A stretch of 64,000 bases of DNA from Thermoanaerobaculia bacterium (GCA_036399695.1 DASWMP010000345.1:1478-65477), one strand, 5' to 3'; numbered from the stretch's first letter, positions 6,181 to 64,000 are shown. A program made the numbers and translations. Notes: a model not told the origin generated them from the letters alone.

Positions 6181-7572
6181 ATGAAGACCGCCAGTGCACT
6201 GCTCCTCACGCTTCTCACCGCAATGCTGTTCGCCGCTCCGCTGCAGGCGCAAACGACGCCCCTCTGCGACGAGTCCGACACGCCGCTGAGCTGCTGGCTG
6301 AAGTACAACCCCGCGCCCAGGGAGGCAGCCACGCAGGTAGCCGCCGTCACGCAGCAAAGGGTCGCGGCGGCGAACACCGGTGCGCCGGGTGTCCTCTCCC
6401 CCGCGAGCTCCGCGGTGAAGGACTTCCTCTCGCTCCTCAGCGCGTCGCTGGAGTCGTCGACGACTTCGTCGAACGGCCAGGTGCTCACCTTCGATTACAA
6501 CCCCGATGTCGAAATCCTCGGCACGCCCGACGCCCTGAAGCTGCAGGTCTCCTTCGCCAAACCGGAGCTCAACGCCAAGTACACGGCCGCCCTGGCGACC
6601 AACGCCGCGGCGCTGCAGAGCGCGAACGACGACCTGACGAACACGGACGACATCACCTTCGTCGGCAGCTTTCAGCCCACGAGCCGTCTGTTCGGCCGCA
6701 GCATCGAGCCGCACCGCCCGCTGTTCGAAGCGATGCTCATCTCGCAGGTGCCGACGACGGACCTCGCCGCGCGCAACGCCGCCCTGGTCGAGGCCGTCAA
6801 GGCCGGCGGCATCATGTCGGAGACGCAGACCTTCGGGTCCATCCCGGTGGCCACCCGCGCGCCGACGATCGTCGCCTTCGAGAACGCCGCCCGCCAGCAG
6901 GCCGCGATGCGGAAGCCGCTGAAGGCATTCAGCGACGTCTTCGCCAGGCTGCTGAACAACCAGCCGCAGCTCTACGCCTCCGGCATCTACGAGGCACGTA
7001 AGAACATCGCCGGCCCGAATACGTTCAGCGGCAAAGTGACGTACGAGATGGGAGCGAAGAACCTCAACGGCTTCCGCCGTAAGTTCGGCACGACGTGCAA
7101 CGAGACGACCATCGCCGACAGCGCCACCGCCGACAGATGCGCCACCCTGCTCGCCACCTATGCCGGCGCCGCCAGCTCCGTGGACGACCGCCTGGTCTTT
7201 TCGCTCCAGTACGACCGCTCCGACCAGCGCTGGATCTCCGACCCGGCGCTCGGCCTGGACTTCGGCTATCCCCGCACCACGAGCCTCGTCTACGAGGTGA
7301 AGTACGGCCGCACGATGAACGGCGCCATCACCGGCACGACGAACGGCCGCCTCGACGCCACGGTCAAGTACGAGGACGTGATGGACGACGGCGACCCGGC
7401 CAACGACATCTCCTCCCGCACCACCGGCTCGCTGACCTACACGCTCAAAATCAACGACACCGTCAACCTCCCTCTGTCCCTGGTCTACGCCAGCGACCCG
7501 GCCGACCTGACCGACACGAACCGCAAACTGAACGCCCACTTCGGCCTGGTCCTCAAGCTGCCGACGAAGTGA
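6181..7572 (+). CDS. Secreted hypothetical protein (about 464 aa)
   Basis: RBS GAGGA before the ATG. Signal peptide 'MKTASALLLTLLTAMLFAAPLQAQ'. Alternative in-frame starts at 6169 and 6175. Confidence 0.5.
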   Translation: MKTASALLLTLLTAMLFAAPLQAQTTPLCDESDTPLSCWLKYNPAPREAATQVAAVTQQRVAAANTGAPGVLSPASSAVKDFLSLLSASLESSTTSSNGQVLTFDYNPDVEILGTPDALKLQVSFAKPELNAKYTAALATNAAALQSANDDLTNTDDITFVGSFQPTSRLFGRSIEPHRPLFEAMLISQVPTTDLAARNAALVEAVKAGGIMSETQTFGSIPVATRAPTIVAFENAARQQAAMRKPLKAFSDVFARLLNNQPQLYASGIYEARKNIAGPNTFSGKVTYEMGAKNLNGFRRKFGTTCNETTIADSATADRCATLLATYAGAASSVDDRLVFSLQYDRSDQRWISDPALGLDFGYPRTTSLVYEVKYGRTMNGAITGTTNGRLDATVKYEDVMDDGDPANDISSRTTGSLTYTLKINDTVNLPLSLVYASDPADLTDTNRKLNAHFGLVLKLPTK

Positions 7573-7629: not shown

Positions 7630-8061
7630 CTACTGCCCCGCTTCGCGCTCCTTCGCCAGCTCGTAATTGCGGCGCCACTGTTCCGCGCGATCCGGCGGCA
7701 GATTCGCGGCGCGGATCGTGATCGGCAGGCGCACACGCCCGCGCAGGATCGTGAGCCGCAGGACGTCACCCGGCTTACGTGTGGCGAAGAACTGCAGGGC
7801 CGCTTTGTCCGTGACGAAGGAGAGAGGGCGGTCGTTGAGGCCGACGACGACATCCTGCACCCGCAAGCCCGCTTTCGCTGCCGGTCCGCCGGTTTCGACA
7901 CGGTGAATGTAGAGCCACTGGCTGACCGCCGCTTTCGGCTCGACGTGCCGGTTGAATCCGAAGCCGTACCAGCCGGGCGGCTGAGGCGTCGCCGCGGCCA
8001 TCGAGCTGGCCGTGCTCAGAGCGAGAGCTGCGACACAGATCAATCGTCGGAGATCCGTCAT
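7630..8061 (-). CDS. Secreted PDZ-domain protein
   Basis: Signal peptide 'LICVAALALSTASSMAA'. PDZ-like 'VETGGPAAKAGLRVQDVVVGLNDRPL...GDVLRLTILRG'. Confidence 0.55.
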   Translation of the reverse strand: MTDLRRLICVAALALSTASSMAAATPQPPGWYGFGFNRHVEPKAAVSQWLYIHRVETGGPAAKAGLRVQDVVVGLNDRPLSFVTDKAALQFFATRKPGDVLRLTILRGRVRLPITIRAANLPPDRAEQWRRNYELAKEREAGQ

Positions 8062-8068
8062 GTCATCC

Positions 8069-10201
8069 TCATTTCGCCGAAGGCCAGAGAGAGCTGCCGT
8101 CGATACGTACGATGCCCCCCGGCGTCACGCGTGCCGTAATGCATCGGTTGCCGGGAGCCGGTCCGGCGCACACCTGGTACTCGCCGGGCTCCAGCGCTAA
8201 GCGGAAGGCCCCGTCGCGGAACTCGCGCGCGGGTCCGGGCTGCGATGCGGGCGAGAAGAGAAAGGGAAGGGGCAGCGCCATGTCACCTCGGCGAACAAAG
8301 GGCCACGGAGGTGCGCCCGCCAGGACGATGGCCAGCTCGCCGGCGCTGGGATCGATGCGGATCTCCGCCGGATCGTCGTGCAGCGAGATCCGCTCCAGCT
8401 TCAGCGGCAGCCCAGGCGCGACGATCGCGACGTCGAGCGTGCTGCTGCCGGCCGGTACTTCGGCCATGAACGAGCCGCTCGGTCCCGTGACGTACTCGCG
8501 CAGCCGCCCCTGAGCGAACGCGCGGATCATCGCACCGACGACAGGCAGGCCGTCAGTGCGCCGTACGAGCACGCGTACGGTCGACGGCGGCCGGACCGTC
8601 AGCGTCGTCTCCGTTGCTCCGGACTCCCTGACGGTTACGGCCACACGCTCGCTTTCAGCGCGAGCCGTTCGGGCGCGCACGCTCATCTCGCCCGGGCGGA
8701 GGCCGTACAGGGTGAACGAGCCGTCGTCCGCCGAAGCAGCATTCGCCTCGAATTCCGTACCGCGCAGCACGACCACGTCAGCCCCGGCAATGGCCGACCC
8801 GAATTCATCGACAACCTTTCCTTCGATCCGTCCGCCCGGAAGCACGACGTCAACCGTTGCGACCTCTTCGCCTTCCCGGCGGTGGACGTCGGCGTGCGTC
8901 CGTACCTGCTGCAAGCCGCTCTTGGGCGTCACGCGCACGCGCCACTGCCCCTCCTCCGGAACGGCACCGGCGAACTCTCCCTGCGCGTTCGAATGCAGGA
9001 CGATGCTGCGGCCGCGCGAGTCGAAGTTGAGCCGTCCCTCGACCGGCTGCGTTCCGACGAGCACGGTGCCTCGAACCGGCACCTCGCCGACCGCGATCGT
9101 AACGTGCTCGAGGTCCGTCCGGATGTCGACCTCACGCGCGGCGACGACGGAGCCCGACGCGACGACCGCCAGCCGATAACGGCCACGTTCGAGACCCTTG
9201 GCCGACCATTCGCCCGTCGCCGTTGCTGCACCTGACGTCACACGTTCCCGTCCGGTTCCTCGCGTCGTGAATCGGTCGAGCTCCACCCGCCACCTCTGCT
9301 CGGGGGCAGGCGTCGCCGGTGTCAGCCGCGTCTCCAGCACCGCCAGCGGCATGAGCAGCAACGGATCTTCGAGCACCGTCTCTTGTGCTTCGCGTACGCG
9401 CAGCTCCTCCAGCCGCGCGGGCGACGCATCCTTTGCGTGCGCGGCCAGAGTGAACACACCCGCCGGAACGCCGACGATCTGGAAGAACCCGCGTGCCGTC
9501 GCCCGCGCGCTCAGGACCCGCGTCTGCAGCCGCCGGCGTGTCGCCTCGTCGCCCCCATGGACGGATGGACTCAGCTCGACGGCGATCGGCTCCGCGGAAG
9601 GAGTGTTGCGCGAGACCCATCCGGCCACGGAGCCCCCCTGCTCGAACAGTATCGCGCCGAGGGAACGTGCCCCTTCCGGGGTGACGTCCCAGAGATACAC
9701 AGGAGCGAATCCGGAAGCGACCAGCCGCACATCGAGGGACGTTGCGGGCACGGCGCACGTCCATGTGTTGCCGTCGACCGTGCAGGAAGTCTCGGTTGTG
9801 TCGACAGCGGCGCTCCCCGGCGGCGACTGGATGACGGCGCGCAACGCCGCCGGCGGCCGAATGCCCGGCCGCGTCTTTAGCTCCCCCCGAAGCACTGCCT
9901 TCGGCCAGACGCGCAAAACGGCCGTCGTGTCATCGGCAACCGCATCGACGACGAGCGGCGCCGCCCAGCAGTCCGGAGAGTCGAGCGTAACGCGCCAGTC
10001 GGCGCCGGCGGCCAGCGCCAGCTTCGCGCCGCGCTCCAGTACCTGTGCAGTGCGCGCCGCTTCGCCGTCTGCTCCGATCGTTTCGGCTCGCAGCACGCCA
10101 GTACAGCGGCTGGCCGCGTCGTTCACCGGTGCCACGACGACGTGACCTTCAGCCGGCGCACCGGCCACCATCAGCACCGCGAGAATCGGTAGAAGGCTCA
10201 T
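8069..10201 (-). CDS. Large secreted protein with multiple carboxypeptidase-regulatory-like (prealbumin-fold) domains
   Basis: Start chosen at 'MSLLPILAVLMVAGAPAEG' (signal peptide); the longer N-terminal extension of the ORF is not signal-like. Repeated 'GRIEGKVVDEFGSAIAGADVVVL...DGSFTLYGLRPG' CarboxypepD_reg-type motifs. Confidence 0.6.
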   Translation of the reverse strand: MSLLPILAVLMVAGAPAEGHVVVAPVNDAASRCTGVLRAETIGADGEAARTAQVLERGAKLALAAGADWRVTLDSPDCWAAPLVVDAVADDTTAVLRVWPKAVLRGELKTRPGIRPPAALRAVIQSPPGSAAVDTTETSCTVDGNTWTCAVPATSLDVRLVASGFAPVYLWDVTPEGARSLGAILFEQGGSVAGWVSRNTPSAEPIAVELSPSVHGGDEATRRRLQTRVLSARATARGFFQIVGVPAGVFTLAAHAKDASPARLEELRVREAQETVLEDPLLLMPLAVLETRLTPATPAPEQRWRVELDRFTTRGTGRERVTSGAATATGEWSAKGLERGRYRLAVVASGSVVAAREVDIRTDLEHVTIAVGEVPVRGTVLVGTQPVEGRLNFDSRGRSIVLHSNAQGEFAGAVPEEGQWRVRVTPKSGLQQVRTHADVHRREGEEVATVDVVLPGGRIEGKVVDEFGSAIAGADVVVLRGTEFEANAASADDGSFTLYGLRPGEMSVRARTARAESERVAVTVRESGATETTLTVRPPSTVRVLVRRTDGLPVVGAMIRAFAQGRLREYVTGPSGSFMAEVPAGSSTLDVAIVAPGLPLKLERISLHDDPAEIRIDPSAGELAIVLAGAPPWPFVRRGDMALPLPFLFSPASQPGPAREFRDGAFRLALEPGEYQVCAGPAPGNRCITARVTPGGIVRIDGSSLWPSAK

Positions 10202-18189: not shown

Positions 18190-18620
18190 GTGCACGAGGA
18201 GGGCTCCGGGACCGATACGAGATCCGTTTCGAGTGATTCGAATGACTCGTTGAGTGATGGGAAGTCGGTTTCGAGTGACCGGAAAGCGGTGCCGAGTGAT
18301 GCGGGATCGACTCACAGTGATGCGCATTCGATTCGGCGTGATCCGGAATCGGCTCTGAGCGATCGGAAATCGGTTTCGAGTGTTCGGAAATCGATTTGGA
18401 GTGTTCGAGTCTCGTCCTGGAGACACTCGAAATCGGTTTTGAGTGTTCGAGTCTGGTCGGGAGGACACCGAAATTCGGTTTTGAGTGATCGATTCTCGGT
18501 TTGAGGACACTCGCAACACTAAAAACCGATTTCGGATCACTCAAAACGATCCAGTCTCGTCGGGAGGACACTGGAGATCGGTTTTTGCGTGTTTGTGTCT
18601 CGTCTGGAGGCACCGCGCAC
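18190..18620. repeat. AT-rich degenerate tandem array of roughly 21-bp units (GAAATCGGTTTCGAGTGATCG-like), becoming about 42-bp units distally
   Basis: At least 12 consecutive units such as gaagtcggtttcgagtgaccg / gaaatcggtttcgagtgttcg / gaaatcgatttggagtgttcg. GC content is markedly lower than in the flanks. Sits immediately upstream of the sulfatase start. Confidence 0.6.
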
Positions 18621-19741: not shown

Positions 19742-19912
19742 ATGGCGACGTGTAGTTTGGAGTGCGGCAGCGACGCTTCATCAGCTGCCGCTTTCCTATA
19801 GCCGCAGCGGAGCTGTGGCGCAACGTGGTGCACTGTAAGGAGCGGAAGCTCGACGCTTCCGCTATGTAAAAGCGGCAGCTGATGAAGCGCCGCTGCCGCA
19901 CTCCAAACTACG
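19742..19912. repeat. Nested REP-like composite palindrome of family A (about 155 bp)
   Basis: Outer arms tttggagtgcggcagcgacgcttcatcagctgccgcttt / aaagcggcagctgatgaagcgccgctgccgcactccaaa. Inner hairpin agcggaagctcgacgcttccgct. Confidence 0.65.
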
Positions 19913-25240: not shown

Positions 25241-25267
25241 GAGCTCCCGAAGGGGACGACGACCGGG

Positions 25268-25410
25268 GCGCCTCCGGCGGGCGGCCACGGGCCGCAGCGC
25301 TGGTTGCCATAGGCTGCGCGATAGTTGTCGCGATTAACGCGTTAGTAAGTAGGGGCGACTGCGGCTTGGCCAACCAGCGCTGCGGCCCGTGGCCGCCCGC
25401 CGGAGGCGCC
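25268..25410. repeat. Large hairpin: roughly 40-bp near-perfect inverted repeat flanking a roughly 60-bp lower-GC loop
   Basis: gcgcctccggcgggcggccacgggccgcagcgctggttg ... caaccagcgctgcggcccgtggccgcccgccggaggcgcc. Confidence 0.6.
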
Positions 25411-25463
25411 CCCCGTCCGTCATCCCTTCGGGAAATCCAACGACCGCGTCCCTCTCACGGGGC

Positions 25464-29168: not shown

Positions 29169-29416
29169 GAGACTCCTTTCGCTTCCCTCCGAAGCGTGAA
29201 TACGAGCGAGTCTGAGCGGTCGGTCTCCTGGCTCTCGGGTCATCCTTCCCACACCACCCTTCCCGCTTTCGCAGTGGGGACCCATCGAGGGTCGGGTGTG
29301 AGTCGTCGCCGAACACAGTGGCGGGGGCCGCGCCGGCTTGAACCGGCTTCCCGTGCACCGCATCAGATGCATGTTGGGAAAGAACTGGGGGCAGATGATA
29401 GCACTGGCCGCGGCCT

Positions 29417-29636
29417 GGGCTCGGGGCCCGGGGCTCGGGGCTCGGTGGGGGTCAGACGCGAGGTCAAGGGGACGGCACAGCAGACAGCGCCCTTCACCTC
29501 GAGCCTGGTACCTGGCCCAGGGCTCGGGCCCCGGGGCCAGGGGCGTCAGACGTAAGGTTAAGAGGACTGCACCGAAGGCGGCCCCTCAACCTTGGGTCTG
29601 ACCCCCACCGGGCCCTGAGCCCCGAGCCCCGAGCCC
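29417..29636. mobile_element. MITE-like element of family B (GC-rich GGGCTCGGGGC termini, internal direct repeat)
   Basis: Terminal inverted repeats gggctcggggcccggggctcggggctcggtgggggtcagac / gggtctgacccccaccgggccctgagccccgagccccgagccc. Internal duplicated block gtcagacgYRaggtYaagRgga. Confidence 0.55.
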
Positions 29637-29637
29637 T

Positions 29638-34003: not shown

Positions 34004-34190
34004 GGAGGGCCCGGGGCTCGGGGCTCGGGGCCCGGTGGCATTGACTTAGAGGTTTGCCTCATGTGGGACAGACACTCCTGTCTGTCCGGCCCACCCCCGA
34101 GGTCCATTCCTCCAGACAAGCGGCCGTTCGGGTGCACGGGACAGACAAGAGTGTCTGTCCCACATCTAAAGTCAACGCCATCGGGGCGCT
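34004..34190. mobile_element. MITE-like element of family B, copy 2 (GC-rich end plus GGGACAGACACTC palindromes)
   Basis: Near-identical to the reverse complement of 43112-43306. Imperfect TIRs ttgacttagaggtttgcctcatgtgggacagacactc / gagtgtctgtcccacatctaaagtcaa. Internal gggacagacactcctgtctgtcc palindrome. Confidence 0.7.
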
Positions 34191-39351: not shown

Positions 39352-39735
39352 GATCTCACCCCATTCGGTCGATCGCTCGCGGAGTCTTTGCTTTGCCTCC
39401 CCGAGTCTTCGATTGAAGTGACCCCAATCATTCAGTCGTTCGCGGAGTCTTCGCTTTGACTCCCGGAGTCTTCGATTGATATCGCCCATGTCATTCGCTC
39501 GTTCGCGGAGTCTTTGCTTTGCCTCCCCGAGTCTTCGATTGATATCGGCCCATATCAATCGTTCGTTCGCGGAGTCATTGCTTTGACTCGCGGAGTCTTC
39601 AATTGATATCGCCCCATATCAATCGTTCGCTCGCGGAGTCTTCGCTTTGACTCCCGGAGTCTTCGATTGATATCGGCCCATATCATTCGGTCGTTCGCGG
39701 AGTCTTTGCTTTGACTCCCGGAGTCTTCGAGTGAG
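39352..39735. repeat. Tandem repeat, about 6 copies of a roughly 63-bp unit
   Basis: Units such as cccatatcaatcgttcgttcgcggagtcattgctttgactcgcggagtcttcaattgatatcgg repeat head-to-tail. Each unit carries an internal cggagtcttcg duplication. The whole unit is conserved, with no unique spacers. Confidence 0.7.
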
Positions 39736-39814
39736 CTCGGCCCTGTCAATCGCATGCTCGCCGAGGCCAGTGATGGACTCGCCGGGGCCGCGGTTGACGT
39801 CGGTGGGGCCTGGC

Positions 39815-45632: not shown

Positions 45633-45649
45633 GGGGCTCCTTTTTTTGA

Positions 45650-45733
45650 GTTGGCAGTTGGCAGTTGGCGGTTGGCAGTGTCGGAGCCAGAGTCTTTCTA
45701 CTGCCAACCGCCTACTGCCAACCGCCAACTAGC
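45650..45733. repeat. Hairpin of family C with (GTTGGCR)-repeat arms
   Basis: gttggcagttggcagttggcggttggcag ... ctgccaaccgcctactgccaaccgccaact; it contains the TAG stop of mtgA. Confidence 0.7.
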
Positions 45734-47573: not shown

Positions 47574-47682
47574 GGGAACAGGGAACGATGGGACCTATGG
47601 GACAACCTATAGGACCTATAGGACCTATGAGCAGGCTGCCTGACTCCCATAGGTCCCATCTCCCATCTGTCCCATTTGTCCA
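47574..47682. repeat. Hairpin of family C with (ATGGGACCT)-type repeat arms
   Basis: gatgggacctatgggacaacctataggacctataggacctatgag ... ctcccataggtcccatctcccatctgtcccatttgtcc. A related copy lies inside lhr at 63318-63390. Confidence 0.65.
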
Positions 47683-50725: not shown

Positions 50726-51349
50726 ATGCCGCCGAAGATCTTCCTTCTCTCGCCCGCGAGCCTGAACGGTTTGCGGGCGAAGCAGCTCTCCTCGCCGAGG
50801 GCAAAGTTCGCGCTGGCGCTGCAGTACCAGACGCCCGAGGGCGTGGAGATCGGCGATGCCTTCGCGTTCATGAGCGCGTTGTACTTTCGCGGCAAGATCG
50901 CCTACGCGCGGCGGTTCGCGGTGCCGTCACCGGCGCTCGGCGGCAACGGCATTCTGGTCATCACCTCGGGTTACGGGCTCGTGCCTCCGGATTGGCGGCT
51001 CACGGCGGAGCGGCTCGAGCGGATGCAGAAGATCGACGTGGACATGGCGTCGCGCAACTACACGAAACCGCTGCGCGAGCACGCCGACGTCCTGCACCGG
51101 ACGCTGGAGTCGGACGCGCAGGTGGTGCTGCTCGGCAGCGTCGCCACCGGCAAGTACGTCGACGTGCTGCGGCCGATCCTCGGCGACCGGCTGCGCTTCC
51201 CGACCCACTTTGCCGGGTTGGGCGACATGGCCCGCGGCGGGCTGATGCTGCGCGCCGCACGGGCCGGCATCGAGCTGGAGTACCAGAGCCTGGACGCGAA
51301 CCGGCACCGCGCGCCCGGTGCCACCGGGAAGATGCCCAAGCTGGAGTGA
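50726..51349 (+). CDS. Hypothetical protein (207 aa)
   Basis: Coding-like ORF downstream of uvrA; no recognised motif. Confidence 0.4.
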   Translation: MPPKIFLLSPASLNGLRAKQLSSPRAKFALALQYQTPEGVEIGDAFAFMSALYFRGKIAYARRFAVPSPALGGNGILVITSGYGLVPPDWRLTAERLERMQKIDVDMASRNYTKPLREHADVLHRTLESDAQVVLLGSVATGKYVDVLRPILGDRLRFPTHFAGLGDMARGGLMLRAARAGIELEYQSLDANRHRAPGATGKMPKLE

Positions 51350-51383
51350 AACACCGCGTGTGGCGCCTTAGAATGAGTGAACG

Positions 51384-51632
51384 ATGAACGGGAGTGACAT
51401 CAGGGCCTGGGCGGCGAACCACCGCGCCGGATCGGCGCGCGAACGAATGGAGGCTCGCCGCCATCGGCTCAATCCTGCTGATGCCTTCGCCTCCGCGCTG
51501 GCGCTGCTCGTTTTCGACGAGCTTCAGAACGGCTCGCCGTTCGAGCGGATCGATCCCGTTTCCGACCGTGAGGACGAGCAGATGAGAGCAGCGTGGACGA
51601 AACTTCGCGAGCGGGGAGTCTGTGGCCGCTGA
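51384..51632 (+). CDS. Small ORF (82 aa) overlapping the start of the nucleotidyltransferase gene; possible antitoxin-like partner
   Basis: Weak RBS. 11-nt overlap with the downstream gene. No recognisable fold. Confidence 0.25.
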   Translation: MNGSDIRAWAANHRAGSARERMEARRHRLNPADAFASALALLVFDELQNGSPFERIDPVSDREDEQMRAAWTKLRERGVCGR

Positions 51633-52206
51633 CGACCGGCTCGTTGGCGCACTCCGGGCGCTCGCGGATGCGCTGAACGATCTGTCCGCGCCGTCGATGA
51701 TCATCGGCGGTATCGCCGTGATCGCGGCGGGCGTACCTCGACAGACGATCGACATCGACGCGACGATCCTGGGCCGCGCCACCAGTCCAGAAGATGTCCT
51801 CGCCACGCTCGAACGTCACGAGATCGTTCCCAGAATTTCCGACGCACTCGAGTTTGCCCGCGAGCGTCAGGTCCTTCTGCTCCAGCACTTCCCCAGCCGC
51901 GTCACGATCGAGGTGACATTCGCATGGCTGCCGTTCGAAGAAGACGCGCTGTCTCACGCGTTCGAAGTCGAGCTCCACGGTGTGCGCGTGCGCGTCGCGC
52001 GCCCCGAGGACCTCGTCATCTACAAGGCAGCGGCCTGGCGGGACCGGGATCGCTCAGATATCGAACGCCTGTTGGTCCTGCATCTGGATGACATCGACCT
52101 TTCGAGAATTCGTTCGCTCCTCAATGAGATCGCCGTGGCGCTGGATGATCCCCACCGGCTGGCCGCCTTCGACGCCATCGTGGATCGCGTTCGCCACGGC
52201 GCGTAA
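51622..52206 (+). CDS. Nucleotidyltransferase-fold (Pol-beta-like) protein
   Basis: GTG start after GGGGAG. 'MIIGGIAVIAAGVPRQTIDIDATI' matches the minimal NTase motif hG[GS]-x(n)-DhDh. Confidence 0.5.
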   Translation: MAADDRLVGALRALADALNDLSAPSMIIGGIAVIAAGVPRQTIDIDATILGRATSPEDVLATLERHEIVPRISDALEFARERQVLLLQHFPSRVTIEVTFAWLPFEEDALSHAFEVELHGVRVRVARPEDLVIYKAAAWRDRDRSDIERLLVLHLDDIDLSRIRSLLNEIAVALDDPHRLAAFDAIVDRVRHGA

Positions 52207-52287
52207 ACCCGTCTCGCCCTGCCGCCCGGATCGATCCATCACCGAGCGCTCTTGGTCTTGCTCGTTTCCCCGCTGCACAATACGGCC

Positions 52288-54700: not shown

Positions 54701-54847
54701 CAGTTGGCGGTTGGCGGTACGCGCGCTTCGCGCGCTCGCGGTTGGCGGTGGCTGAAACCGGGGCCAGCGGCGCTCTCCCGTCGTTGGGGGTTTCGGCTAC
54801 CGCCAACCGCCATCGCGCAAAGCGCGCGTACCGCCAACCGCCAACTG
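54701..54847. repeat. Long palindrome (about 147 bp) of family C with (GTTGGCG) arms
   Basis: cagttggcggttggcggtacgcgcgcttcgcgcgctcgcggttggcggtggctgaaacc ... ggtttcggctaccgccaaccgccatcgcgcaaagcgcgcgtaccgccaaccgccaactg. Confidence 0.7.
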
Positions 54848-54863
54848 ATTCACGGCACGGTCC

Positions 54864-56051
54864 GTGAACACGGACGCGTCTGTGGCTGAGGACGAACAGG
54901 GAGCGGCGCTCTTTCCGGATGGGAAGAAGCGTCATCGTGTTTATCGCGGGCTCAACGAACGGCAGGAGCACATCTTCACCTGGATCGCCGTCGTCATCGT
55001 GCTGCTCTTCGCCACCGCCTGGCTCGGCGGCATCATCGAGACCTTCCGGCTGCGGCGGGCCGCGGTTGCCGAAGCCAAAGCCACCGGCCACCCTGTCGTG
55101 CTGCCTCCCGCGCCGACCCGGCAGATCACCGCTGCCCTGACGCAGCCCGGGACCCCTTCCACCGCGTACATCAACGACGCCCTGCTCGGATTTTTGAATC
55201 CGTTGCGGGGGGAGAGCGGCGCGGTCCAGTTCGCGCCGGTGCTGCCGGGCGAGACCGTGGCGCCGGGAGCGCCGGGCGAAGCGGACGCCGTGCTGACGCA
55301 GGGTGGGGCACGCCAGGTCTCACCTGACTTTGCGGCTCCGTCGAGCCCTGGCGTCTACAAACTGGCCGTGCAGGTCCAGCAGGCCACCCGCATCGTGGAG
55401 AACATCAACGTCATCACCCTCGTGCCCATGTCGCAGAAGCGTGGCGGCAAGATCGGGCTCTACTACCTCGGGAGCTGGCCTTTCGAGGGGGGCGGCAAGC
55501 CGCGCGGCGAGCGTTACCAGCCGCCCCGCGGCTTCATCGAGGTGACCAGGGAGAACCAGAACACCCGCGTCTCCGAGCACTTCCGCCTGCGCGACTTCCT
55601 GACCAAGGACCAGCGCAACGTCTGGCCGAAATACCTCCTGCTCGACGCGCAGCTCATCGACAAGCTCGAGCTGACGATCCAGGAACTGGAGGCGCAGGGC
55701 GTCCGCGTCGACAACGTGCACGTCATGAGCGGCTTCCGGACACCCCGCTACAACCACAGCGGCGGCAACACGGCCGGCCGGGCGAACCTCAGCCGGCACA
55801 TGTACGGCGATGCAGCCGACGTTTACGTCGACAACAACCAGGACGGCCAGCCGGACGACATCACCAAAGACGGCCGCGTCGACACCCGCGACGCGCAGTT
55901 CTTCGCCGACGCGGCCGAACGGGTGGAGCGGAAGTACAGCCGCCTGGTGGGCGGCATTGGCGTTTATTCAGCATGCTGCGGGCACGGACCCTTCACGCAC
56001 ATCGACGTGCGGGGCTTCCGCGCGCGCTGGCGCGGCACCGGCAATGGCTAG
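54864..56051 (+). CDS. Membrane-anchored peptidase M15A (DUF882/YcbK-like) family protein
   Basis: GTG start. TM helix 'IFTWIAVVIVLLFATAWLGG'. 'HVMSGFRTPRYNHSGGNTAGRANLSRHMYGDAADVYV' matches the DUF882 Zn-peptidase core. Confidence 0.6.
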   Translation: MNTDASVAEDEQGAALFPDGKKRHRVYRGLNERQEHIFTWIAVVIVLLFATAWLGGIIETFRLRRAAVAEAKATGHPVVLPPAPTRQITAALTQPGTPSTAYINDALLGFLNPLRGESGAVQFAPVLPGETVAPGAPGEADAVLTQGGARQVSPDFAAPSSPGVYKLAVQVQQATRIVENINVITLVPMSQKRGGKIGLYYLGSWPFEGGGKPRGERYQPPRGFIEVTRENQNTRVSEHFRLRDFLTKDQRNVWPKYLLLDAQLIDKLELTIQELEAQGVRVDNVHVMSGFRTPRYNHSGGNTAGRANLSRHMYGDAADVYVDNNQDGQPDDITKDGRVDTRDAQFFADAAERVERKYSRLVGGIGVYSACCGHGPFTHIDVRGFRARWRGTGNG

Positions 56052-56062
56052 TTAACGAGTCG

Positions 56063-56131
56063 GCAGTACGCGGTTGGCGGGAGGCAGGAGAACGGTTTCA
56101 CTGCCAACCGCCAACTGCCAACCGCCAACTT
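56063..56131. repeat. Imperfect hairpin of family C with (CCAACYG) arms
   Basis: cagtacgcggttggcgg ... ccgccaactgccaaccgccaact. Confidence 0.55.
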
Positions 56132-56142
56132 CAGGAGGAAGT

Positions 56143-56652
56143 GTGGCAACAGAAGTCCCGTGTCCCGAATGTGCAACGCCCCGCACCGATCTTTCGGTGG
56201 TCTGTCCCACGTGCGGCGCGCCGCCGGTCCGTCCGGGAGAACAGCGCGCCCTGACGGGCGAGGAAGTACGTGCGGCCGATCTCGAGCCCTACGTCACGCT
56301 GCGCTACATCGCGCGGCTGTTCAAGGTCTTCGCGATCCTCGTCATCGTGATGCTCATCGGCGAAGTCGTGACCGGTGTGGCGTCCGAAGGGCAGGGCGCT
56401 CTCTATACGCTCATCGGCGAAGCAACGCAGTTGCTCGTCCTGGCAGGCCTCATGTGGGCCGGCGGCGACGTGACGCTGCTGATCATCGACGCCGGCCATG
56501 ACCTCCGCGTCGCCCGCATCCTCCTCGGCCGCATCAACGCCGAGCTCCACCGCCGCGCCGGCGACACCGCCGACACCACCGCCGCCGACCGCCTGGCACC
56601 GCCGACCCTCGCGGAGAAGGCGGAGCGGAGGAGCGATCCGAACAGGCGTTGA
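56143..56652 (+). CDS. Zinc-ribbon (CPxC...CPxC) membrane protein
   Basis: AGGAGG 4 nt before the GTG. 'VPCPECATPRTDLSVVCPTCGAP', followed by a hydrophobic segment. Confidence 0.45.
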   Translation: MATEVPCPECATPRTDLSVVCPTCGAPPVRPGEQRALTGEEVRAADLEPYVTLRYIARLFKVFAILVIVMLIGEVVTGVASEGQGALYTLIGEATQLLVLAGLMWAGGDVTLLIIDAGHDLRVARILLGRINAELHRRAGDTADTTAADRLAPPTLAEKAERRSDPNRR

Positions 56653-58051: not shown

Positions 58052-58148
58052 TGTTTTTGGTTTTGGTTTTTGGTTGTTGGTGCTTCGCTATGCGAGGGCT
58101 CGGCGCGCGGCGCAGCACCAAAAACCCAAAACCAAAAACCAACAACTA
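58052..58148. repeat. Hairpin of family C with (TTTTGGT) arms
   Basis: gctgtttttggttttggtttttggttgttggtgcttcgc ... gcgcagcaccaaaaacccaaaaccaaaaaccaacaac. Confidence 0.65.
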
Positions 58149-58157
58149 CGTCGCGTG

Positions 58158-58964
58158 TCAGCGGAGCTGACACGCGGGACACCAAAACGTCACCCTCACA
58201 TCCCTTCCCTGCTTCGTCATCTCGATCTTCGTGCCGCATTTGCGGCAGGGGAGGGCGCGGCGGGCGTAGACGTAGAGGCGTTGGCCGCGGTCGAGGCTTC
58301 CGGTGGTTTCGCGGCCGCCGTTGCGTTTGTTCACGTTCATCTGCATCACGCGGCGGGCTACGCGCAGGAGCTCGTGGAGCTCTTCGTCCGTGACGCTTTC
58401 GACCTTCCGGAAAGGGCTGATGCCCCGCAGGAAGAGGAGCTCGGATTTGTACTCGTTGCCGATGCCGGAGACGACGCGCTGATTGAGGATCACGTCGGCG
58501 ATCTCTTCGTTGTTGCGGGCGCGGATGCGGCGGACGGCTTCGTCCGCGTCGAACGTTTCGCCGAGGAGATCGGGGCCGATCAGACGGAGATCGTCCTGCC
58601 GGGCCAGCGAGCGCGCGTCGTGGAACTCGGCCACCGGCACGTTGAAGGCGACGGCGACGAAGTCCTCCGTCGCCAGGACGATGCGCATGTCGCTGCGCGG
58701 CTTCCGCCACCGCTCCCCCGGACGGTAGATGTGCCACGAGCCGTTCATGCGCATGTGGGTGTGCAGATGCAGATCGCCCGAGAGCTCGATCAGCAGATTC
58801 TTGCCCGCCGCGCCGACGCGCTCGATCGTCCGCCCCGCGAGCGGCGCGTCTTCGTCGATCCGCGCGAGCTGCGGAAACACGGTCTCGAACCGCGTCACCT
58901 GCTTCCCCGCCAGCGCCTTGTGCAGCACCCGCGCGGCGCGGTGGATCGTGTCACCCTCGGGCAT
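58158..58964 (-). CDS. Fpg/Nei-family DNA glycosylase (formamidopyrimidine/endonuclease VIII-like)
   Basis: Start 'MPEGDTIHRAARVL' (catalytic Pro2/Glu3). H2TH region. C-terminal zinc finger 'CRKCGTKI...FWCPACQ'. Confidence 0.8.
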   Translation of the reverse strand: MPEGDTIHRAARVLHKALAGKQVTRFETVFPQLARIDEDAPLAGRTIERVGAAGKNLLIELSGDLHLHTHMRMNGSWHIYRPGERWRKPRSDMRIVLATEDFVAVAFNVPVAEFHDARSLARQDDLRLIGPDLLGETFDADEAVRRIRARNNEEIADVILNQRVVSGIGNEYKSELLFLRGISPFRKVESVTDEELHELLRVARRVMQMNVNKRNGGRETTGSLDRGQRLYVYARRALPCRKCGTKIEMTKQGRDVRVTFWCPACQLR

Positions 58965-59343
58965 GGAACGTCGGGTGGAGCGACAGGAACCGCCAGCCGC
59001 CCTCCTCCTGCACCAGCACGGCATTGATGCGATGCGCCAGCGCGTAGCGTTTGCCGTTCGGCGCCAGAGCGCCGTCGATCACCGCGTCCGCTTCGACGAC
59101 GACGGTGGCGTCGGACAACTCCCGCATTTGTATCGAGTCGACGCGGTACGTGCTCTCCCGCATCGTCTCCTCATGCTCCCGCCCCAGCAGCGCCGCCACC
59201 CCCTCCCGCCCGCTGGCGAACCGCCCCCACGGGTCCACCGCGCTCCCCTGCGCGGACCAGCACGCCGCCATCCGCGCAAGATCATGCGCGTTCCAGGCAG
59301 CAGAGAATTCGTCGAAAGCGGCGCGGATCTCGGGTTCGGTCAT
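58951..59343 (-). CDS. SnoaL/NTF2-like domain protein
   Basis: RBS AAAGGAG before the ATG 'MTEPEIRAAFDEFSAAWNAHDLARMAACW'. 14-nt overlap with the fpg start. Confidence 0.6.
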   Translation of the reverse strand: MTEPEIRAAFDEFSAAWNAHDLARMAACWSAQGSAVDPWGRFASGREGVAALLGREHEETMRESTYRVDSIQMRELSDATVVVEADAVIDGALAPNGKRYALAHRINAVLVQEEGGWRFLSLHPTFHARG

Positions 59344-59362
59344 GCGGCTCCTTTGATGATCT

Positions 59363-59437
59363 CGGAGTGCGGTGGCGGACGGACGCCACCGCTCGTTTAC
59401 ACGTGTAGCAGTGCGGTGGCGTTCGCCACCGCACTCC
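59363..59437. repeat. Two adjacent REP-like hairpins of family A
   Basis: ctcggagtgcggtggcggacggacgccaccgctc and cagtgcggtggcgttcgccaccgcactcc. Confidence 0.6.
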
Positions 59438-59452
59438 AAGAAGCGTCGTTTT

Positions 59453-62400
59453 CTACCCCGCCCTCAATTGATACCCCATTGCCGTGGGCACGAAACCCTC
59501 TTCCGCCAGAAATGGGGCCAGCGGGCTTCTGGCCACCGGTTCATCGTTCACGTCCACGATCAGCAGCGCCCGGCGGTGCCGCTCTCGCACGAGCGACGCC
59601 AGCGCCTTCGCCACCTCTTTCGCCACGCAGGAGCGCAGCGGCTCGTCTTCCGGCAGGAACAGCGACACCTGCTTCTCACCGCGGCTTACGTACGCGGACA
59701 TCATCCCGTTGACCAGCACCACGTGCGTGCCGACCGTGCGCGAGAGCCTCTCGGCCGTCTCCGGCCACTTGACGATCGTGCCGTAGGGATTCGCCGGGTC
59801 CGTCGAGGCCAGCATCACCGTCTCCGGCGTATCCGGCTCGTCGCGGAAACCGCGCAGCAGGTCGATGGCGCCGGCGGAGGTGAACTGCGTCGCGCCGAGG
59901 CCGGCGACGAAGTAGCCGCGGCGGATGCGTCCCGCTTCCTCCAGCGCCTTGAGGATCGGATAGACGGCGCTGAAGCCGCCGGCGATCCCTTCCGCGCCCG
60001 GCGCTTCGCGCGTCACGAGCCCGTAGCGATTGAGGAGCTGCTGCGCGACAGCGGTGGCGTGCTGCGTCTCGTTCGCCGCCGCCGTGCCGACCAGCGACCA
60101 GCGTCCCTGCGTCGACGCCGGGGCTACGCGGCGCGAGCGGAAGCCGGTCGCGCGCGGCTGCTTCGGCCGCGTGAAAGCGCGCAGCGCGTGGAACGTGTCG
60201 TTCGTGACCACGCCCTTCCAGACCAGGCTCCAGAGCGCGTCGACCAGCTCCGCCGGGAACCCGCCGACGGCGAGCTGCATCTGCGCGAAGAACGTGGCGC
60301 CCGAGGTGCGCAGATGCTCGACGATCTTCGTCTCCAGCTCCGTGAGGCCGGTTGGGCGGTTGGCGGTTGGGCGGTTGGGCGGAGGAGTGCCGACGGCGCC
60401 GCTGTTTGCCTCTGCCCAACCGCCCAACTGCCCAACCGCCCAACTGCTCCGATGCAGCATCGGCAGGTGATCCGTCAGGTACACGGCGATCCGGCCATCG
60501 CGCTCGCCCAGCGGCTCGACGCCGACCCAGACGATCTCGCCGGCAGTGCTGAGGGTGTCGAGGTCCGACGGCTTGTAGTCCTCGAGGCGCGCGTCGAGGA
60601 TCTCCGTCTCGAAGATCGAGGCCGCCATCGGATAGCCCTGCAGCGTCTCGATCGTCTCGAGCAGCGCGTCGAGGCCGCGACGCTTGCGGATGGCGTGCTG
60701 CCAGTGCGTGAACAGCCGCGCCAGCGCCGGCTGGTCGACCGGCTCCGCTTCCTTGCGCAGCTTGGCCAGCGCGCGGCGGCGGATGATGCGCAGCACGTCG
60801 GACTCGACCCACTCCCGCTGCGTGCCGCCCGGGCGGAAGTCCCCTTCGATGAGGCGTCCGCGCTCGACGAACTTCGCCAGCGTCGTGTTCACCACCGCCA
60901 CGCCGAGGCCGTAGCGGCCCGCCAGCTCGGCCGGCGTGAAGGGGCCGTGGCTGCGCGCGTAGCGGAGCACGAGATCCCCCGTGGCGTCGGCCACCGGCTG
61001 GAGGTAGCGCTCGGCGATGCCCTGCGGAAGCGGGACGCCGAGCGCATCGCGATAGCGGGACGCGTCCTCGATGGCGATGAAGCGTTTGTCGCGGGCGATC
61101 GTCACCTCGATGACGCGCCGCGCCTTCGTCAGCTCCGCGATCGACGGCGGCGCGTCGATGAGCGACCGCGCCGCGATCTCATCGACGCTGAGATCGCCGA
61201 GACGCAACAGCAGGTCGTGAATGCCGTCCGTGCTCTTCGCCTTGCGGTTCTCCACGAGATGCTGCAGCTCGAGCTCCGTCTGCTCGATCGAATCGGGATC
61301 GAGCAGCTCGCGCAGCTCCGGCTCGCCGAGGAGCTCGCGCAACTGGTTCTGGTCGATCGCCAGCGCCTGCGCGCGGCGTTCGGCCAGCGGCGCGTCGCCG
61401 TCGTAGAGGAAGTTCGCGACGTAGCGGAACAGCACCGCCGAGGCGAACGGCGACGGCTTGAGCGTGTCGGCCGTGACGACGCGGATCTGCCGCTCCCGGA
61501 TGCGCCGCATCATGTCCACCAGCGCCGGCACGTCGAACACGTCGCGCAGCACCTCGCGGTACGTCTCGAGAATCATCGGAAACGACCCGAAGCGCGACGC
61601 CACCTGCAGCAGGTCGTACGCCCGTTTGCGCTGCTGCCAGAGCGGCGTGCGGCCCTGCGGGCGGCGGCGCGGCAGCAGCAGCGCGCGGGCCGCCGCTTCG
61701 CGGAACTTCGCCGCGAACATCGACGTCGCGCCGAGCTGGCGCACCACGAGCTGCTCCACCTCGTCCGCATCCGGGATCATCAGCTCCGCGGGGGGCGGCT
61801 TCTCGGTCTCGGGGAAACGGATGATGAAGCCGTCGTCCGCCCACATCGTCTCCACGTCGATGGCCAGCTCGTTCCGCACCTTCGCCGCGACGGCCATGGC
61901 CCACGGCGCGTGAATGCGCCCGCCGAACGGCGAGAGCACGCAGACGCGCCAGTCCCCCAGCTCGTCCGTGACCCGCTCGACCACGACCGTGCGGTCATCC
62001 GGAATCGCGCCGGTGGCCTCGTGCTGATCGTCGAGGTACTGCAGCAGGTTCTGCGCGGCCAGGCGGTCGAGGTCGTGCTTCGCCGTCAGCGTGCGGATCG
62101 CATCCGCCGGCTTTGCGGCGCGCAGCTCGCGCACGAGCCGCCCGATCTCGAAGCCGAACGGCACAGTGCGCTCCGCGGAGTCGGCCTTCCAGAACGGCAT
62201 CTTGCCCGGTTGCCCCGGCGCCGGCGTGACGACGACGCGGTCGTGCGTGATCTCTTCGATGCGCCAGGTGGAGGCGCCGAGGACGAACGTCTCGCCGACC
62301 GAGGCCTCGAAGACCATTTCTTCGTCGAGCTCACCGACGCGCGCGCTGGACGTCTTCTCCGCCCCGGCCAGGAAGACGCCGTACAGCCCGCGGTCCGGGA

Positions 62401-64000
62401 TCGTGCCGCCGTTCGTGATGGCCACCCGCTTCGCCCCCTGCCGCGCCGTGACGGTGTTGGCCACGCGGTCCCACGTCAGGCGCGGGCGAAGCTCCGCGAA
62501 TTCGTCGGAAGGATAGAGCCCGGAGAGCATGTCCAGCACGCCGTCGAACGCGCCGCGGCTCAGCTCCGCGTACGACGCGGCGCGGCGGATGGCGCCGTAC
62601 AGATCGTCGACCGGCCAGTCGTCCATCGCCACCATGGCCACGAGGTGCTGGGCCAGGACGTCGAGCGGGTTGCGCGGATAGCGGGTCGGCTCGATGCTGC
62701 CCTCGTGCATGGCCCGCGTCACCGCCGCGCAGGCGACGAGATCGCCCCGGAACTTGGGAAAGATGATGCCGGCGCTGACGGCGCCGACGTGGTGGCTGGC
62801 CCGCCCGATGCGCTGCATCCCGGAAGCAATCGACGGCGGCGACTCGATCTGCACGACGAGGTCGATGGCCCCCATGTCGATCCCCAGCTCGAGCGACGAG
62901 GTGGCCACGAGCGCCGGCAGCCGTCCGGACTTCAGCGCGTCTTCGATCTCCACCCGCTGGGCCCGGGCGATCGACCCGTGATGCGCCTGGACGAGCGTCT
63001 CGCCGGCCAGCTCGTTGAGCGCCGCCGCCAGCCGCTCCGCAAGCCGCCGCGAGTTGACGAAGATCAGGGTCGAGGTGTGCTCGCGAATCAGCTCCAGCAG
63101 CCGCGGATGAATGGCCGGCCAGATCGACGGCCCCTTGAGCCCCTGCGCCGCCGGCCCGCTCGGGATCTCCGTGGCCTCCCCCACTTTGGCCATGTCCTCG
63201 ACCGGCACTTCCACCCGCAGCGAGAGCTTCTTCTTCTCCTCGGTGTTGATGATGGTGACGGGGCGGAAGCGGGCGCGCGTGGTGTCGGTGAATTCCTCCG
63301 CAATTTCCTCGGGGGATTCATGGGACCGATGGGACTCATGGGCTTCGCTCGGCCCAGCCATCTCTCCCATAGGTCCCATGGGTCCCATCGTGGCTTCACA
63401 CCCGCCGAGAAATCTCGCCACCTCCTCCAGCGGATGCTGCGTCGCCGAGAGGCCGATGCGCTGCGGTGGGACCTCACAGCGCATGGCCAGGCGCTCCAGC
63501 GAGAGGGCCATGTGCGCGCCGCGCTTGTTCGGGACCAGGGCGTGGATCTCGTCGATGATGAGCGTCTCCACGCCGAGCAGCGTCTCCCGGGCGTTCGAGG
63601 TCATCATCAGGTAGAGGGATTCGGGGGTGGTGATGAGGATGTCGGCCGGGTCGCGCAGGAAGCGGGCGCGCTCGCTCTGCGGGGTATCGCCGGTCCTGAT
63701 GGCCAGCTCCGGCACGACGAATTCATCCCCTCGGCTGCCCGCGACGTTGGAGATCCCGGCCAAAGGGGCGCGCAAATTGCGCTCGACGTCCACAGCCAGC
63801 GCTTTCAGGGGTGAGACATAGACGACACGACAACGCTTTTCCTTCGCCGGACGGGGCCGGAACATCAGCCGGTCGAGCGCCCAGAGGAACGCCGTGAGCG
63901 TCTTGCCGCTGCCCGTGGGGGCCGTAATGAGCGTCCATTGGCCGGCCGCGATGGCAGGCCAGCCCAGCGACTGCGCGCGCGTCGGGCCGCTGAACGAGGA
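59453..64000 (-). CDS. lhr: Lhr-like large ATP-dependent helicase (5' end beyond the window)
   Basis: Upstream of the track ORF's 'MFRP', translation continues '...WTLITAPTGSGKTLTAFLWALDRL' (Walker A) to the window edge. 'VYVSPLKALAVD', 'LIIDEIHAL' (DExH), helicase C domain and Lhr C-terminal region follow. It contains two in-frame palindrome insertions. Confidence 0.9.
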   Translation of the reverse strand, partial: SSFSGPTRAQSLGWPAIAAGQWTLITAPTGSGKTLTAFLWALDRLMFRPRPAKEKRCRVVYVSPLKALAVDVERNLRAPLAGISNVAGSRGDEFVVPELAIRTGDTPQSERARFLRDPADILITTPESLYLMMTSNARETLLGVETLIIDEIHALVPNKRGAHMALSLERLAMRCEVPPQRIGLSATQHPLEEVARFLGGCEATMGPMGPMGEMAGPSEAHESHRSHESPEEIAEEFTDTTRARFRPVTIINTEEKKKLSLRVEVPVEDMAKVGEATEIPSGPAAQGLKGPSIWPAIHPRLLELIREHTSTLIFVNSRRLAERLAAALNELAGETLVQAHHGSIARAQRVEIEDALKSGRLPALVATSSLELGIDMGAIDLVVQIESPPSIASGMQRIGRASHHVGAVSAGIIFPKFRGDLVACAAVTRAMHEGSIEPTRYPRNPLDVLAQHLVAMVAMDDWPVDDLYGAIRRAASYAELSRGAFDGVLDMLSGLYPSDEFAELRPRLTWDRVANTVTARQGAKRVAITNGGTIPDRGLYGVFLAGAEKTSSARVGELDEEMVFEASVGETFVLGASTWRIEEITHDRVVVTPAPGQPGKMPFWKADSAERTVPFGFEIGRLVRELRAAKPADAIRTLTAKHDLDRLAAQNLLQYLDDQHEATGAIPDDRTVVVERVTDELGDWRVCVLSPFGGRIHAPWAMAVAAKVRNELAIDVETMWADDGFIIRFPETEKPPPAELMIPDADEVEQLVVRQLGATSMFAAKFREAAARALLLPRRRPQGRTPLWQQRKRAYDLLQVASRFGSFPMILETYREVLRDVFDVPALVDMMRRIRERQIRVVTADTLKPSPFASAVLFRYVANFLYDGDAPLAERRAQALAIDQNQLRELLGEPELRELLDPDSIEQTELELQHLVENRKAKSTDGIHDLLLRLGDLSVDEIAARSLIDAPPSIAELTKARRVIEVTIARDKRFIAIEDASRYRDALGVPLPQGIAERYLQPVADATGDLVLRYARSHGPFTPAELAGRYGLGVAVVNTTLAKFVERGRLIEGDFRPGGTQREWVESDVLRIIRRRALAKLRKEAEPVDQPALARLFTHWQHAIRKRRGLDALLETIETLQGYPMAASIFETEILDARLEDYKPSDLDTLSTAGEIVWVGVEPLGERDGRIAVYLTDHLPMLHRSSWAVGQLGGWAEANSGAVGTPPPNRPTANRPTGLTELETKIVEHLRTSGATFFAQMQLAVGGFPAELVDALWSLVWKGVVTNDTFHALRAFTRPKQPRATGFRSRRVAPASTQGRWSLVGTAAANETQHATAVAQQLLNRYGLVTREAPGAEGIAGGFSAVYPILKALEEAGRIRRGYFVAGLGATQFTSAGAIDLLRGFRDEPDTPETVMLASTDPANPYGTIVKWPETAERLSRTVGTHVVLVNGMMSAYVSRGEKQVSLFLPEDEPLRSCVAKEVAKALASLVRERHRRALLIVDVNDEPVARSPLAPFLAEEGFVPTAMGYQLRAG
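60350..60447. repeat. Hairpin of family C with (GTTGGGC) arms, lying in-frame inside lhr
   Basis: ggttgggcggttggcggttgggcggttgggcgg ... cccaaccgcccaactgcccaaccgcccaactg. Encodes '...GTPPPNRPTANRPTG...' within the helicase ORF without breaking the frame. Confidence 0.7.
63318..63390. repeat. Hairpin of family C with (ATGGGAC) arms, lying in-frame inside lhr
   Basis: tcatgggaccgatgggactcatggg ... cccataggtcccatgggtcccatcg. Encodes 'MGPMGPMGEMAGPSEAHESHRSHESP' in frame. Confidence 0.7.

Follow-up and report, generated by a model that had tools for sequence, protein, structure and literature searches.

How do two different hairpin repeats come to lie in frame within one gene for a DNA repair helicase, and are they of any use there? 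The question is raised by a 64,000-nucleotide (nt) stretch from a metagenome-assembled genome (MAG) of a Thermoanaerobaculia bacterium of the phylum Acidobacteriota (GCA_036399695.1 DASWMP010000345.1:1478-65477), referred to here as the window. The helicase gene lhr in this window carries one hairpin at each of two sites, site 1 and site 2, numbered in the direction of translation. A previous reading of the DNA without database searches (the sequence-only reading) had proposed that both belong to intergenic hairpin families and that selfish palindromes had spread into an essential gene, as is known from Rickettsia. The explanation that we consider probable is that dispersed, fast-turnover, and likely mobile hairpin repeats are tolerated in two unconstrained linkers of Lhr, where they are translated as loops.

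Two hairpins are part of an intact lhr reading frame

The minus strand of the window contains, at 59453-64000, a single uninterrupted frame of 1515 codons that closes with a stop and reads through both hairpins, as the sequence-only reading had claimed. The features are as follows.

59453..64000, running past the window end, minus strand: lhr coding sequence, with the stop codon at 59453-59455 and the first 19 codons outside the window
63313..63388, minus strand: site-1 hairpin, inverted arrays of the 9-nt unit ATGGGACNN, in the linker between RecA-like domains 1 and 2 (RecA1/RecA2)
60347..60449, minus strand: site-2 hairpin, inverted arrays of the 8-nt unit CGGTTGGG, just past the Pfam module WH3_Lhr

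The complete protein (P0001; HEX9985955.1) has 1534 amino acids (aa), and its identification as Lhr is borne out by Pfam matches to DEAD, Helicase_C, WH_Lhr, DEAD_assoc, and WH2/3/4_Lhr and by a PDB search that returned Mycobacterium smegmatis Lhr (7LHL, E=0; 5V9X, E=2e-258). It possesses the superfamily 2 helicase core, the winged-helix (WH) domain, DEAD_assoc (domain 4), and a C-terminal domain of WH modules, all of which characterize Lhr. The label "essential" given to the gene earlier was wrong; Lhr is not essential, because deletion of lhr is viable in M. smegmatis (PMC9841417).

Both hairpins are built from short tandem units. The arms found by repeat search at site 2 (60347-60385 and 60409-60447) are 39 nt long, with a complementarity of 77% overall and 95% over the inner 21 nt; those at site 1 (63313-63341 and 63358-63386) are 29 nt long, with a complementarity of 79%. 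Tandem Repeats Finder (TRF) resolved the site-2 arms into 4.4 copies of CGGTTGGG paired with 3.9 copies of GCCCAACC and the site-1 arms into 3.3 copies of the 9-nt unit ATGGGACNN paired with 2.7 copies of its complement. When folded as single-stranded DNA and compared to 200 dinucleotide-preserving shuffles, site 2 reached z = -8.3 on the plus strand and -7.8 on the minus strand, with no shuffle (0/200) folding equally well, and site 1 reached z = -3.9 and -3.7, respectively (1/200 and 0/200 shuffles). In the lhr frame, nt 63314-63388 encode MGPMGPMGEMAGPSEAHESHRSHES and nt 60347-60448 encode SSWAVGQLGGWAEANSGAVGTPPPNRPTANRPTG, and the low-complexity peptides quoted in the sequence-only reading are indeed present in the lhr translation; FLGGCEATMGPMGPMGEMAGPSEAHESHR is an example of a peptide that spans a junction between a translated hairpin and Lhr.

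The sequence comes from a metagenome that was assembled from short reads, and assemblers can be misled by palindromes; the hairpins might thus be misassembled, or the gene might be a pseudogene that is open by chance. The contig Ga0334956_000158 of the Joint Genome Institute (JGI), which was assembled differently (30 kb versus 75 kb) and may share its sample with the source MAG, is 100% identical over 20,245 nt, both elements included, and a separate MAG, the closest relative L001 (GCA_036380735.1), carries the site-1 element in diverged form. All Lhr domains are encoded in a frame that stays intact for 1515 codons, and the GC content at third codon positions is 0.91. Outside the elements, the nonsynonymous and synonymous divergences (dN and dS) from L001 are 0.044 and 0.496, giving a dN/dS of 0.089 over 1459 codons. 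Because the second assembly is identical and the site-1 element recurs in another MAG, the hairpins inside lhr are confirmed as real, and an artifact or dead gene, largely refuted, is extremely improbable.

The lhr hairpins belong to families dispersed in the window

At least 11 hairpins with arms of inverted 7- to 9-nt unit arrays are present in the 64-kb window (at 29406, 37194, 39255, 45150, 45649, 47587, 54701, 56048, and 58053, along with the lhr pair), together with several long plain palindromes. All but the two lhr copies are intergenic, and lhr is the one gene among ∼50 that is affected by in-frame hairpins. Further coding copies were sought and rejected, as the hairpins that overlap long stop-to-stop open reading frames (ORFs) sit upstream of the likely starts of the genes concerned (encoding a sulfatase, a TonB-dependent receptor, a GGDEF-EAL protein, and a 158-aa protein). 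None of the hairpins matched an Rfam family. The intergenic copies most relevant to lhr are listed below, without assignment to a strand.

47587..47681: ATRGGACNN 9-mer hairpin, intergenic, upstream of uvrA
45649..45732: GTTGGC heptamer hairpin, intergenic, in the 5′ leader of a gene for a small membrane protein
54701..54848: nested GTTGGCG hairpin between two plus-strand genes
56048..56143: GTTGGC hairpin that separates a stop codon from the ribosome-binding site of the next gene; the site is empty in the relative
58053..58146: GGTTTTT-type hairpin downstream of fpg/nei; the relative lacks this hairpin at the orthologous site

The proposal that both lhr hairpins belong with intergenic families held up. 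ATRGGACNN arrays occur twice in the window (at 47588 and at lhr site 1), six times in 17.8 kb of L001 (of which five at intergenic places), and once at locus L003; none was found at the other 78 Acidobacteriota Lhr loci surveyed (see below). Of GTTGG(G)C arrays, the window has four (45649, 54702, 56103, and lhr site 2) and L001 none, in agreement with site 2 being specific to the lineage of the window.

The units themselves are diverse. Seven nucleotides is the most frequent unit length among paired arrays (16/24 in the TRF output), units of 8, 9, and 10 nt also occur, and further unit sequences include AGTTGGC and GGATTGA, among others. Such diversity is as compatible with a generic in-place process as with discrete mobile families. 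In such a process, slippage would expand a unit within an unconstrained linker and template switching would copy the array in inverted orientation, with no insertion of an element. We regard an origin by in-place growth as unlikely overall, although it is a serious alternative or complement, since growth of this kind may also act after insertion and thus overlap with the explanation that we prefer. Slippage of heptamers has been proposed for the arrays of Xanthomonas (PMC4692102). Against a purely local origin, the unit families recur at unlinked loci of one genome and are lineage specific.

Comparison with the closest relative separates gain from resizing

L001 is syntenic with the window (MBL-fold gene, lhr, SnoaL, fpg/nei … uvrA), with genes that are 77 to 90% identical at the DNA level, and served as the 87%-identical genome for the comparison of lhr. 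At site 2, the window has 103 nt where L001 has 16 nt, which amounts to 29 additional codons (87 nt net). The L001 site encodes the ancestral-looking HRAAPAELTELE, a pattern common to more distant orthologs. The comparison with a related genome that the sequence-only reading had proposed thus identifies a lineage-specific insertion at site 2. The site-1 element is present in both genomes with indels of 15, 9, and 3 nt; the relative has one more repeat unit per arm, and its hairpin is the stronger one (z = -7 versus -3.8 in the window). Such a difference by whole repeat units on both arms is what in-place growth would predict. The estimate that each element had added 25 to 30 residues therefore holds for site 2 only, since the site-1 element fills a linker that was already variable.

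Intergenic hairpins differ nearly everywhere between the window and L001, and orthologous intergenic gaps hold different elements. The GTTGGC hairpin at 56048 corresponds to an empty site in L001, and ATAGGAC hairpins are found in L001 at places where the window has none. The GGTTTT-type hairpin at 58053 is missing from the orthologous site in L001, where a homologous copy that aligns end to end is located two genes away; the inner-loop similarity of this nonorthologous pair was matched by 41/2000 shuffles. Whole-element homology at nonorthologous loci speaks against growth in place, as does the lack of an obvious seed for the unit at site 2 of the relative. We also considered whether the site-2 arms had been added around old sequence. 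The loop GCGGCGCCGTCGG and the relative's GCGGCACCTGCGG agree at 10/13 positions, yet 28% of shuffles did equally well (18% for the loop alone), and the loop is thus not significantly similar to the 16 nt that it replaced; the idea was dropped for lhr.

Several observations weigh against arrival as ready-made elements. Neither a target-site duplication nor a conserved terminal motif was found at the filled/empty pairs (lhr site 2 and window 56048); a CGGAGC repeat flanks site 2 but is already present twice in L001. There is no transposase among the annotated genes of L002, the 75-kb contig from this genome that was covered in part. The lhr site-2 copy consists mostly of 8-nt units and the other three GTTGG(G)C copies in the window of 7-nt units, and unit sequences vary widely among loci and taxa. 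Of the "selfish" spread proposed earlier, the dispersed families are observed, and transposition, for which neither duplication nor transposase was found, is inferred.

The insertions occupy two interdomain linkers

By PDB alignment, site 1 maps between residues 225 and 242 of M. smegmatis Lhr, whose RecA-like domains 1 and 2 comprise aa 8 to 230 and 231 to 435, respectively (PMC5758891); site 1 is therefore located at the RecA1/RecA2 boundary. The position of site 2 corresponds to the interval between residues 1178 and 1188 of the M. smegmatis protein, immediately past the WH3_Lhr match and inside the C-terminal domain of winged helices (PMC8053096). At both of these domain junctions, M. smegmatis Lhr contains next to nothing. 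Linker lengths were surveyed in 120 close orthologs (≥72% identity). The site-1 linker ranges from 0 to 102 aa (median of 34; 44 aa in the window) and has six or fewer residues in 13/120 orthologs, and the site-2 linker ranges from 7 to 82 aa (median of 11; 43 aa in the window). The alignment columns that flank both linkers are ∼90% conserved. Conserved ortholog sequence at the inserts, which would have contradicted an insertion, is thus not seen. Given these lengths, site 2 is a true addition, and the site-1 element occupies a linker that varies in any case.

The structural model contributes little and weighs against too literal a picture of the loops. AlphaFold2 modeled residues 150 to 1349 with a mean predicted local distance difference test (pLDDT) score of 52, and both inserts are coil with scores of <50, as are large neighboring stretches; the description of the inserts as probable exposed, disordered loops draws mainly on the alignment gaps.

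The same linkers are occupied repeatedly in other Acidobacteriota. A survey of 80 Lhr loci taken from GTDB genomes showed that tandem arrays of short units within lhr are concentrated at sites 1 and 2. Strong hairpins unrelated to those of the window are present at site 1 in L008 (the octamer CCGGTTGC), in L016 (a plain palindrome), and in L065, L066, and L074 (Terracidiphilus, with AGGGACY units), and at site 2 in L013. Both linkers hold heptamer or octamer arrays, of one AGGGAAG unit in L034 (6659-6698 and 9644-9673) and of different units in L059 (6653-6688 and 9639-9671), and the lhr of a Terracidiphilus (L079) has three CAGGGAY arrays (6194-6252, 6712-6742, and 7505-7531). Many Lhr linkers contain heptamer arrays that lack an inverted partner, which speaks for growth in place. 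An overall enrichment of arrays in lhr was looked for and rejected (8.4 versus 8.9 per 100 kb in the flanks). The signal is the clustering at two sites, which reflects site tolerance and no special attraction to lhr. The two interdomain linkers thus constitute recurrent landing or growth sites across the phylum and could serve as markers of insertion tolerance.

The inserted peptides escape the constraint on Lhr

The recurrent occupation of both linkers might also mean that the elements are kept for a function, either as a regulatory DNA or RNA structure in lhr (an RNase III site, a G-quadruplex or cruciform, or a transcription pause) or as adaptive linker peptides. Both unit types have GGG tracts 5 to 6 nt apart, which would fit a quadruplex motif. 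However, the elements are conserved neither in sequence nor in presence: the closest relative lacks the site-2 element, and, as noted above, some site-1 linkers are nearly or entirely missing. The dN/dS of the site-1 element between the window and L001 is 0.65; Lhr is under strong purifying selection, and the inserted peptide is not. Nor is there any sign of selection for mRNA structure, a possibility that was examined and rejected. In both lhr elements, the wobble pairs favor the antisense strand over the mRNA, and for the intergenic copies, which of the strands folds better is not consistently linked to transcription. The site-1 hairpin is also weaker here than in L001. Maintenance for function is accordingly improbable, and the inserted peptides presumably have no function of their own.

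The preferred explanation, dispersed hairpins tolerated in unconstrained linkers, would then run as follows. The genome carries repeat families whose hairpin arms are inverted arrays of 7- to 9-nt units around a variable loop; copies are gained, lost, and resized quickly and usually lie just outside coding sequences. Two copies may have landed in, or been copied into, lhr and would have been kept only where the protein is free of sequence constraint, i.e., in the connector between RecA1 and RecA2 and in the connector of the C-terminal domain. They would persist there because they alter the length by a net multiple of three nucleotides and their units are stop-free in the frame used; the ribosome would therefore read the hairpins as low-complexity loops, which are likely harmless and exposed. 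The site-2 element is free of stops in 6/6 frames and site 1 is open in 4/6, compared to 0 to 5 of 6 for the intergenic tandem-unit copies. Because three 8-nt units make up 24 nt, the three frames of a site-2 arm give one cyclic peptide.

Hairpin-encoded N termini in Gemmatimonadales

Translated hairpins of a similar build were found in a second phylum. A metagenome scan with GTTGGGCRGTTGGGCRG returned at least 120 matches, and ∼27 inverted octamer hairpins were counted among the matches listed. In at least six protein families of Gemmatimonadales, octamer hairpins of the unit CGGTTNGG form the N terminus, with the pattern M..AVGRLGGWAVR-[hydrophobic loop]-LTAQPPNRLTA|QD. These families include a membrane dipeptidase (Peptidase_M19), LolA, an SPOR-domain protein, and barrel-like proteins, and the Pfam domains Peptidase_M19, LolA, and SPOR start right past the hairpin-encoded segment. 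The contigs concerned are L084, L086, L089, L091, L095, L100, L102, L110, L122, L137, L171, L177, and L194, together with L204-L206. The left arm encodes the positively charged start, the loop encodes the hydrophobic core, and the right arm encodes …QPPNRLTA|QD. A profile search of a protein database with this segment matched 13 short ORFs. The composition of the hairpin-encoded segments and the export of the proteins suggest that these segments may act as Sec-type signal peptides.

Dipeptidase orthologs from named Gemmatimonadales have N termini of four types (plain, right-arm-only, two-armed octamer, and a hairpin of GGAAYGATG units). The DNA of L091 is distinguished from that of L206 by a clean indel of 27 nt, which coincides exactly with the left arm. 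A single arm that is gained or lost cleanly, around a hydrophobic core that already existed in the loop, speaks for growth in place. The unit and architecture are the same as at lhr site 2, in a different phylum, and the two may or may not be homologous. It is possible, although we hold this only tentatively, that inverted short-unit hairpins constitute a distinct, undescribed, and fast-evolving class of elements in at least Acidobacteriota and Gemmatimonadota that is routinely translated and sometimes co-opted. If so, the Lhr insertions would be a neutral side effect of a process by which functional parts of proteins are built as well. If the signal-peptide observation is true, repeats help to make protein segments, which bears on the origin of new peptide modules in bacteria.

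Other features of the window

Downstream of lhr (58158-59356, minus strand) are a SnoaL-like gene and a gene for an Fpg/Nei-family glycosylase, in an order that is kept in L001. An lhr-nei2 operon has been described in mycobacteria (PMC9841417, PMC11323726) and is echoed here by the order of lhr, the SnoaL-like gene, and fpg/nei. Next to the lhr stop, on its downstream side, the window has a palindrome (59360-59441) and L001 has instead a nested hairpin of 381 nt with arms of the ATAGGAC kind (7784-8149). The palindrome is one of the long, near-perfect palindromes without tandem units (19749-19911, 59360-59441, 25245-25433, and 34061-34165), of which those at 19749-19911 and 59360-59441 share GTGTAG…GGAGTGCGG(Y)(R)GCG and resemble GTAG-tagged elements of the REP/REPIN type (see below).

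The sole Rfam match in the window is a cobalamin riboswitch (29201-29378, minus strand; RF00174, 74.5 bits) upstream of a TonB-dependent receptor gene, with a 232-nt tandem-unit hairpin (29406-29637) directly upstream of it. An intergenic array of six 64-nt units (39369-39752; 86% matches) with internal hairpins GGAGTC…GACTCC is located between a gene for an ABC transporter and the gene that comes next. Tandem repeats of 21 and 42 nt with strong folding potential (18252-18513) lie upstream of the likely start (MAKRPNILLF…) of a sulfatase gene. Finally, ∼0.9 kb with DUF6036/DUF2204 and a small ORF (∼51349-52267; L002 21791-22709) is absent from L001, where the flanking genes are ∼20 nt apart.

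Relation to known repeat systems

In function-related respects, the lhr elements are closest to the Rickettsia palindromic elements (RPEs) (Ogata et al. 2000, 2002, as summarized in PMC10969869), dispersed palindromes of ∼100 bp of which some lie in frame in functional genes and are translated where the fold is undisturbed. The two in-frame palindromic copies in lhr, a gene under purifying selection, match this behavior. RPE copies, however, share their full-length sequence and peptide, and RPE-1 is very often found in ORFs. Here, there is no conserved full-length consensus or peptide; the copies have only a short unit in common, in arrays of 7- to 9-nt units with variable loops and unit numbers, and they affect one gene of the window. 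The host belongs to Thermoanaerobaculia of the Acidobacteriota and not to Rickettsia, and the likeness is one of behavior, with no sequence relationship expected. The earlier statement that such in-frame spread is otherwise rare outside Rickettsia is contradicted by a review of transposable elements of the miniature inverted-repeat type (MITEs), which calls in-frame fusions of small palindromic repeats "not unusual" (PMC10969869). In the literature, we found no earlier description of coding hairpin repeats of the Rickettsia kind for Acidobacteriota.

Other families of small mobile repeats fit less well. REP/REPIN elements (repetitive extragenic palindromes and the hairpins formed by their inverted halves), which are mobilized by REP-associated tyrosine transposases (RAYTs) (PMC3116915, PMC3733652), are likewise short extragenic hairpins with many copies per genome and lineage-specific families. 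REPs are single imperfect palindromes of 20 to 40 nt with a GTAG or CGTC tag and without tandem-unit arrays; no such tag is present at the ends of 60347-60449 or 63313-63388, and no RAYT gene was found in the available sequence (the 75-kb contig). MITEs are also small, noncoding, and dispersed, with inverted-repeat ends, a presence that differs between relatives, and occasional in-frame fusion to ORFs (PMC10969869). In addition to the missing target-site duplication, neither a terminal inverted repeat distinct from the arrays nor a parent insertion sequence was found within the contig. At the sequence level, the lhr elements therefore fail membership in the RPEs, REP/REPINs, and classical MITEs.

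In architecture, the closest counterparts are the GGGAATC heptamer arrays of Xanthomonas, which are 89 to 93% intergenic, are located near gene ends, and include 70 to 75 convergent pairs (PMC4692102), and the short tandemly repeated repetitive (STRR) heptamers of cyanobacteria (as cited in PMC4692102). As in those systems, the hairpins of the window are head-to-tail arrays of ∼7-nt units, frequently in inverted (convergent) pairs that form stem-loops, mostly intergenic near gene ends, and variable in length and sequence between close relatives. The differences are the phylum; the unit sequence, which is neither GGGAATC nor STRR but ATGGGACNN, CGGTTGGG, AGTTGGC, GGATTGA, and others; the coexistence of several unit families in one genome, some with units of 8 or 9 nt; the occurrence of nested hairpins; and the in-frame copies documented here in a conserved enzyme.

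The consequences are partly practical, as translated or adjacent hairpins affect annotation through longer proteins, spurious small ORFs, and shifted start-codon predictions, and the filled and empty sites in close relatives provide material for working out how the hairpins spread. By analogy, the lhr elements appear to work like Rickettsia palindromic elements and to be built like Xanthomonas heptamer arrays. The phenomenon of coding palindromes is thereby extended to free-living soil phyla and to repeats built from tandem units instead of one conserved consensus.

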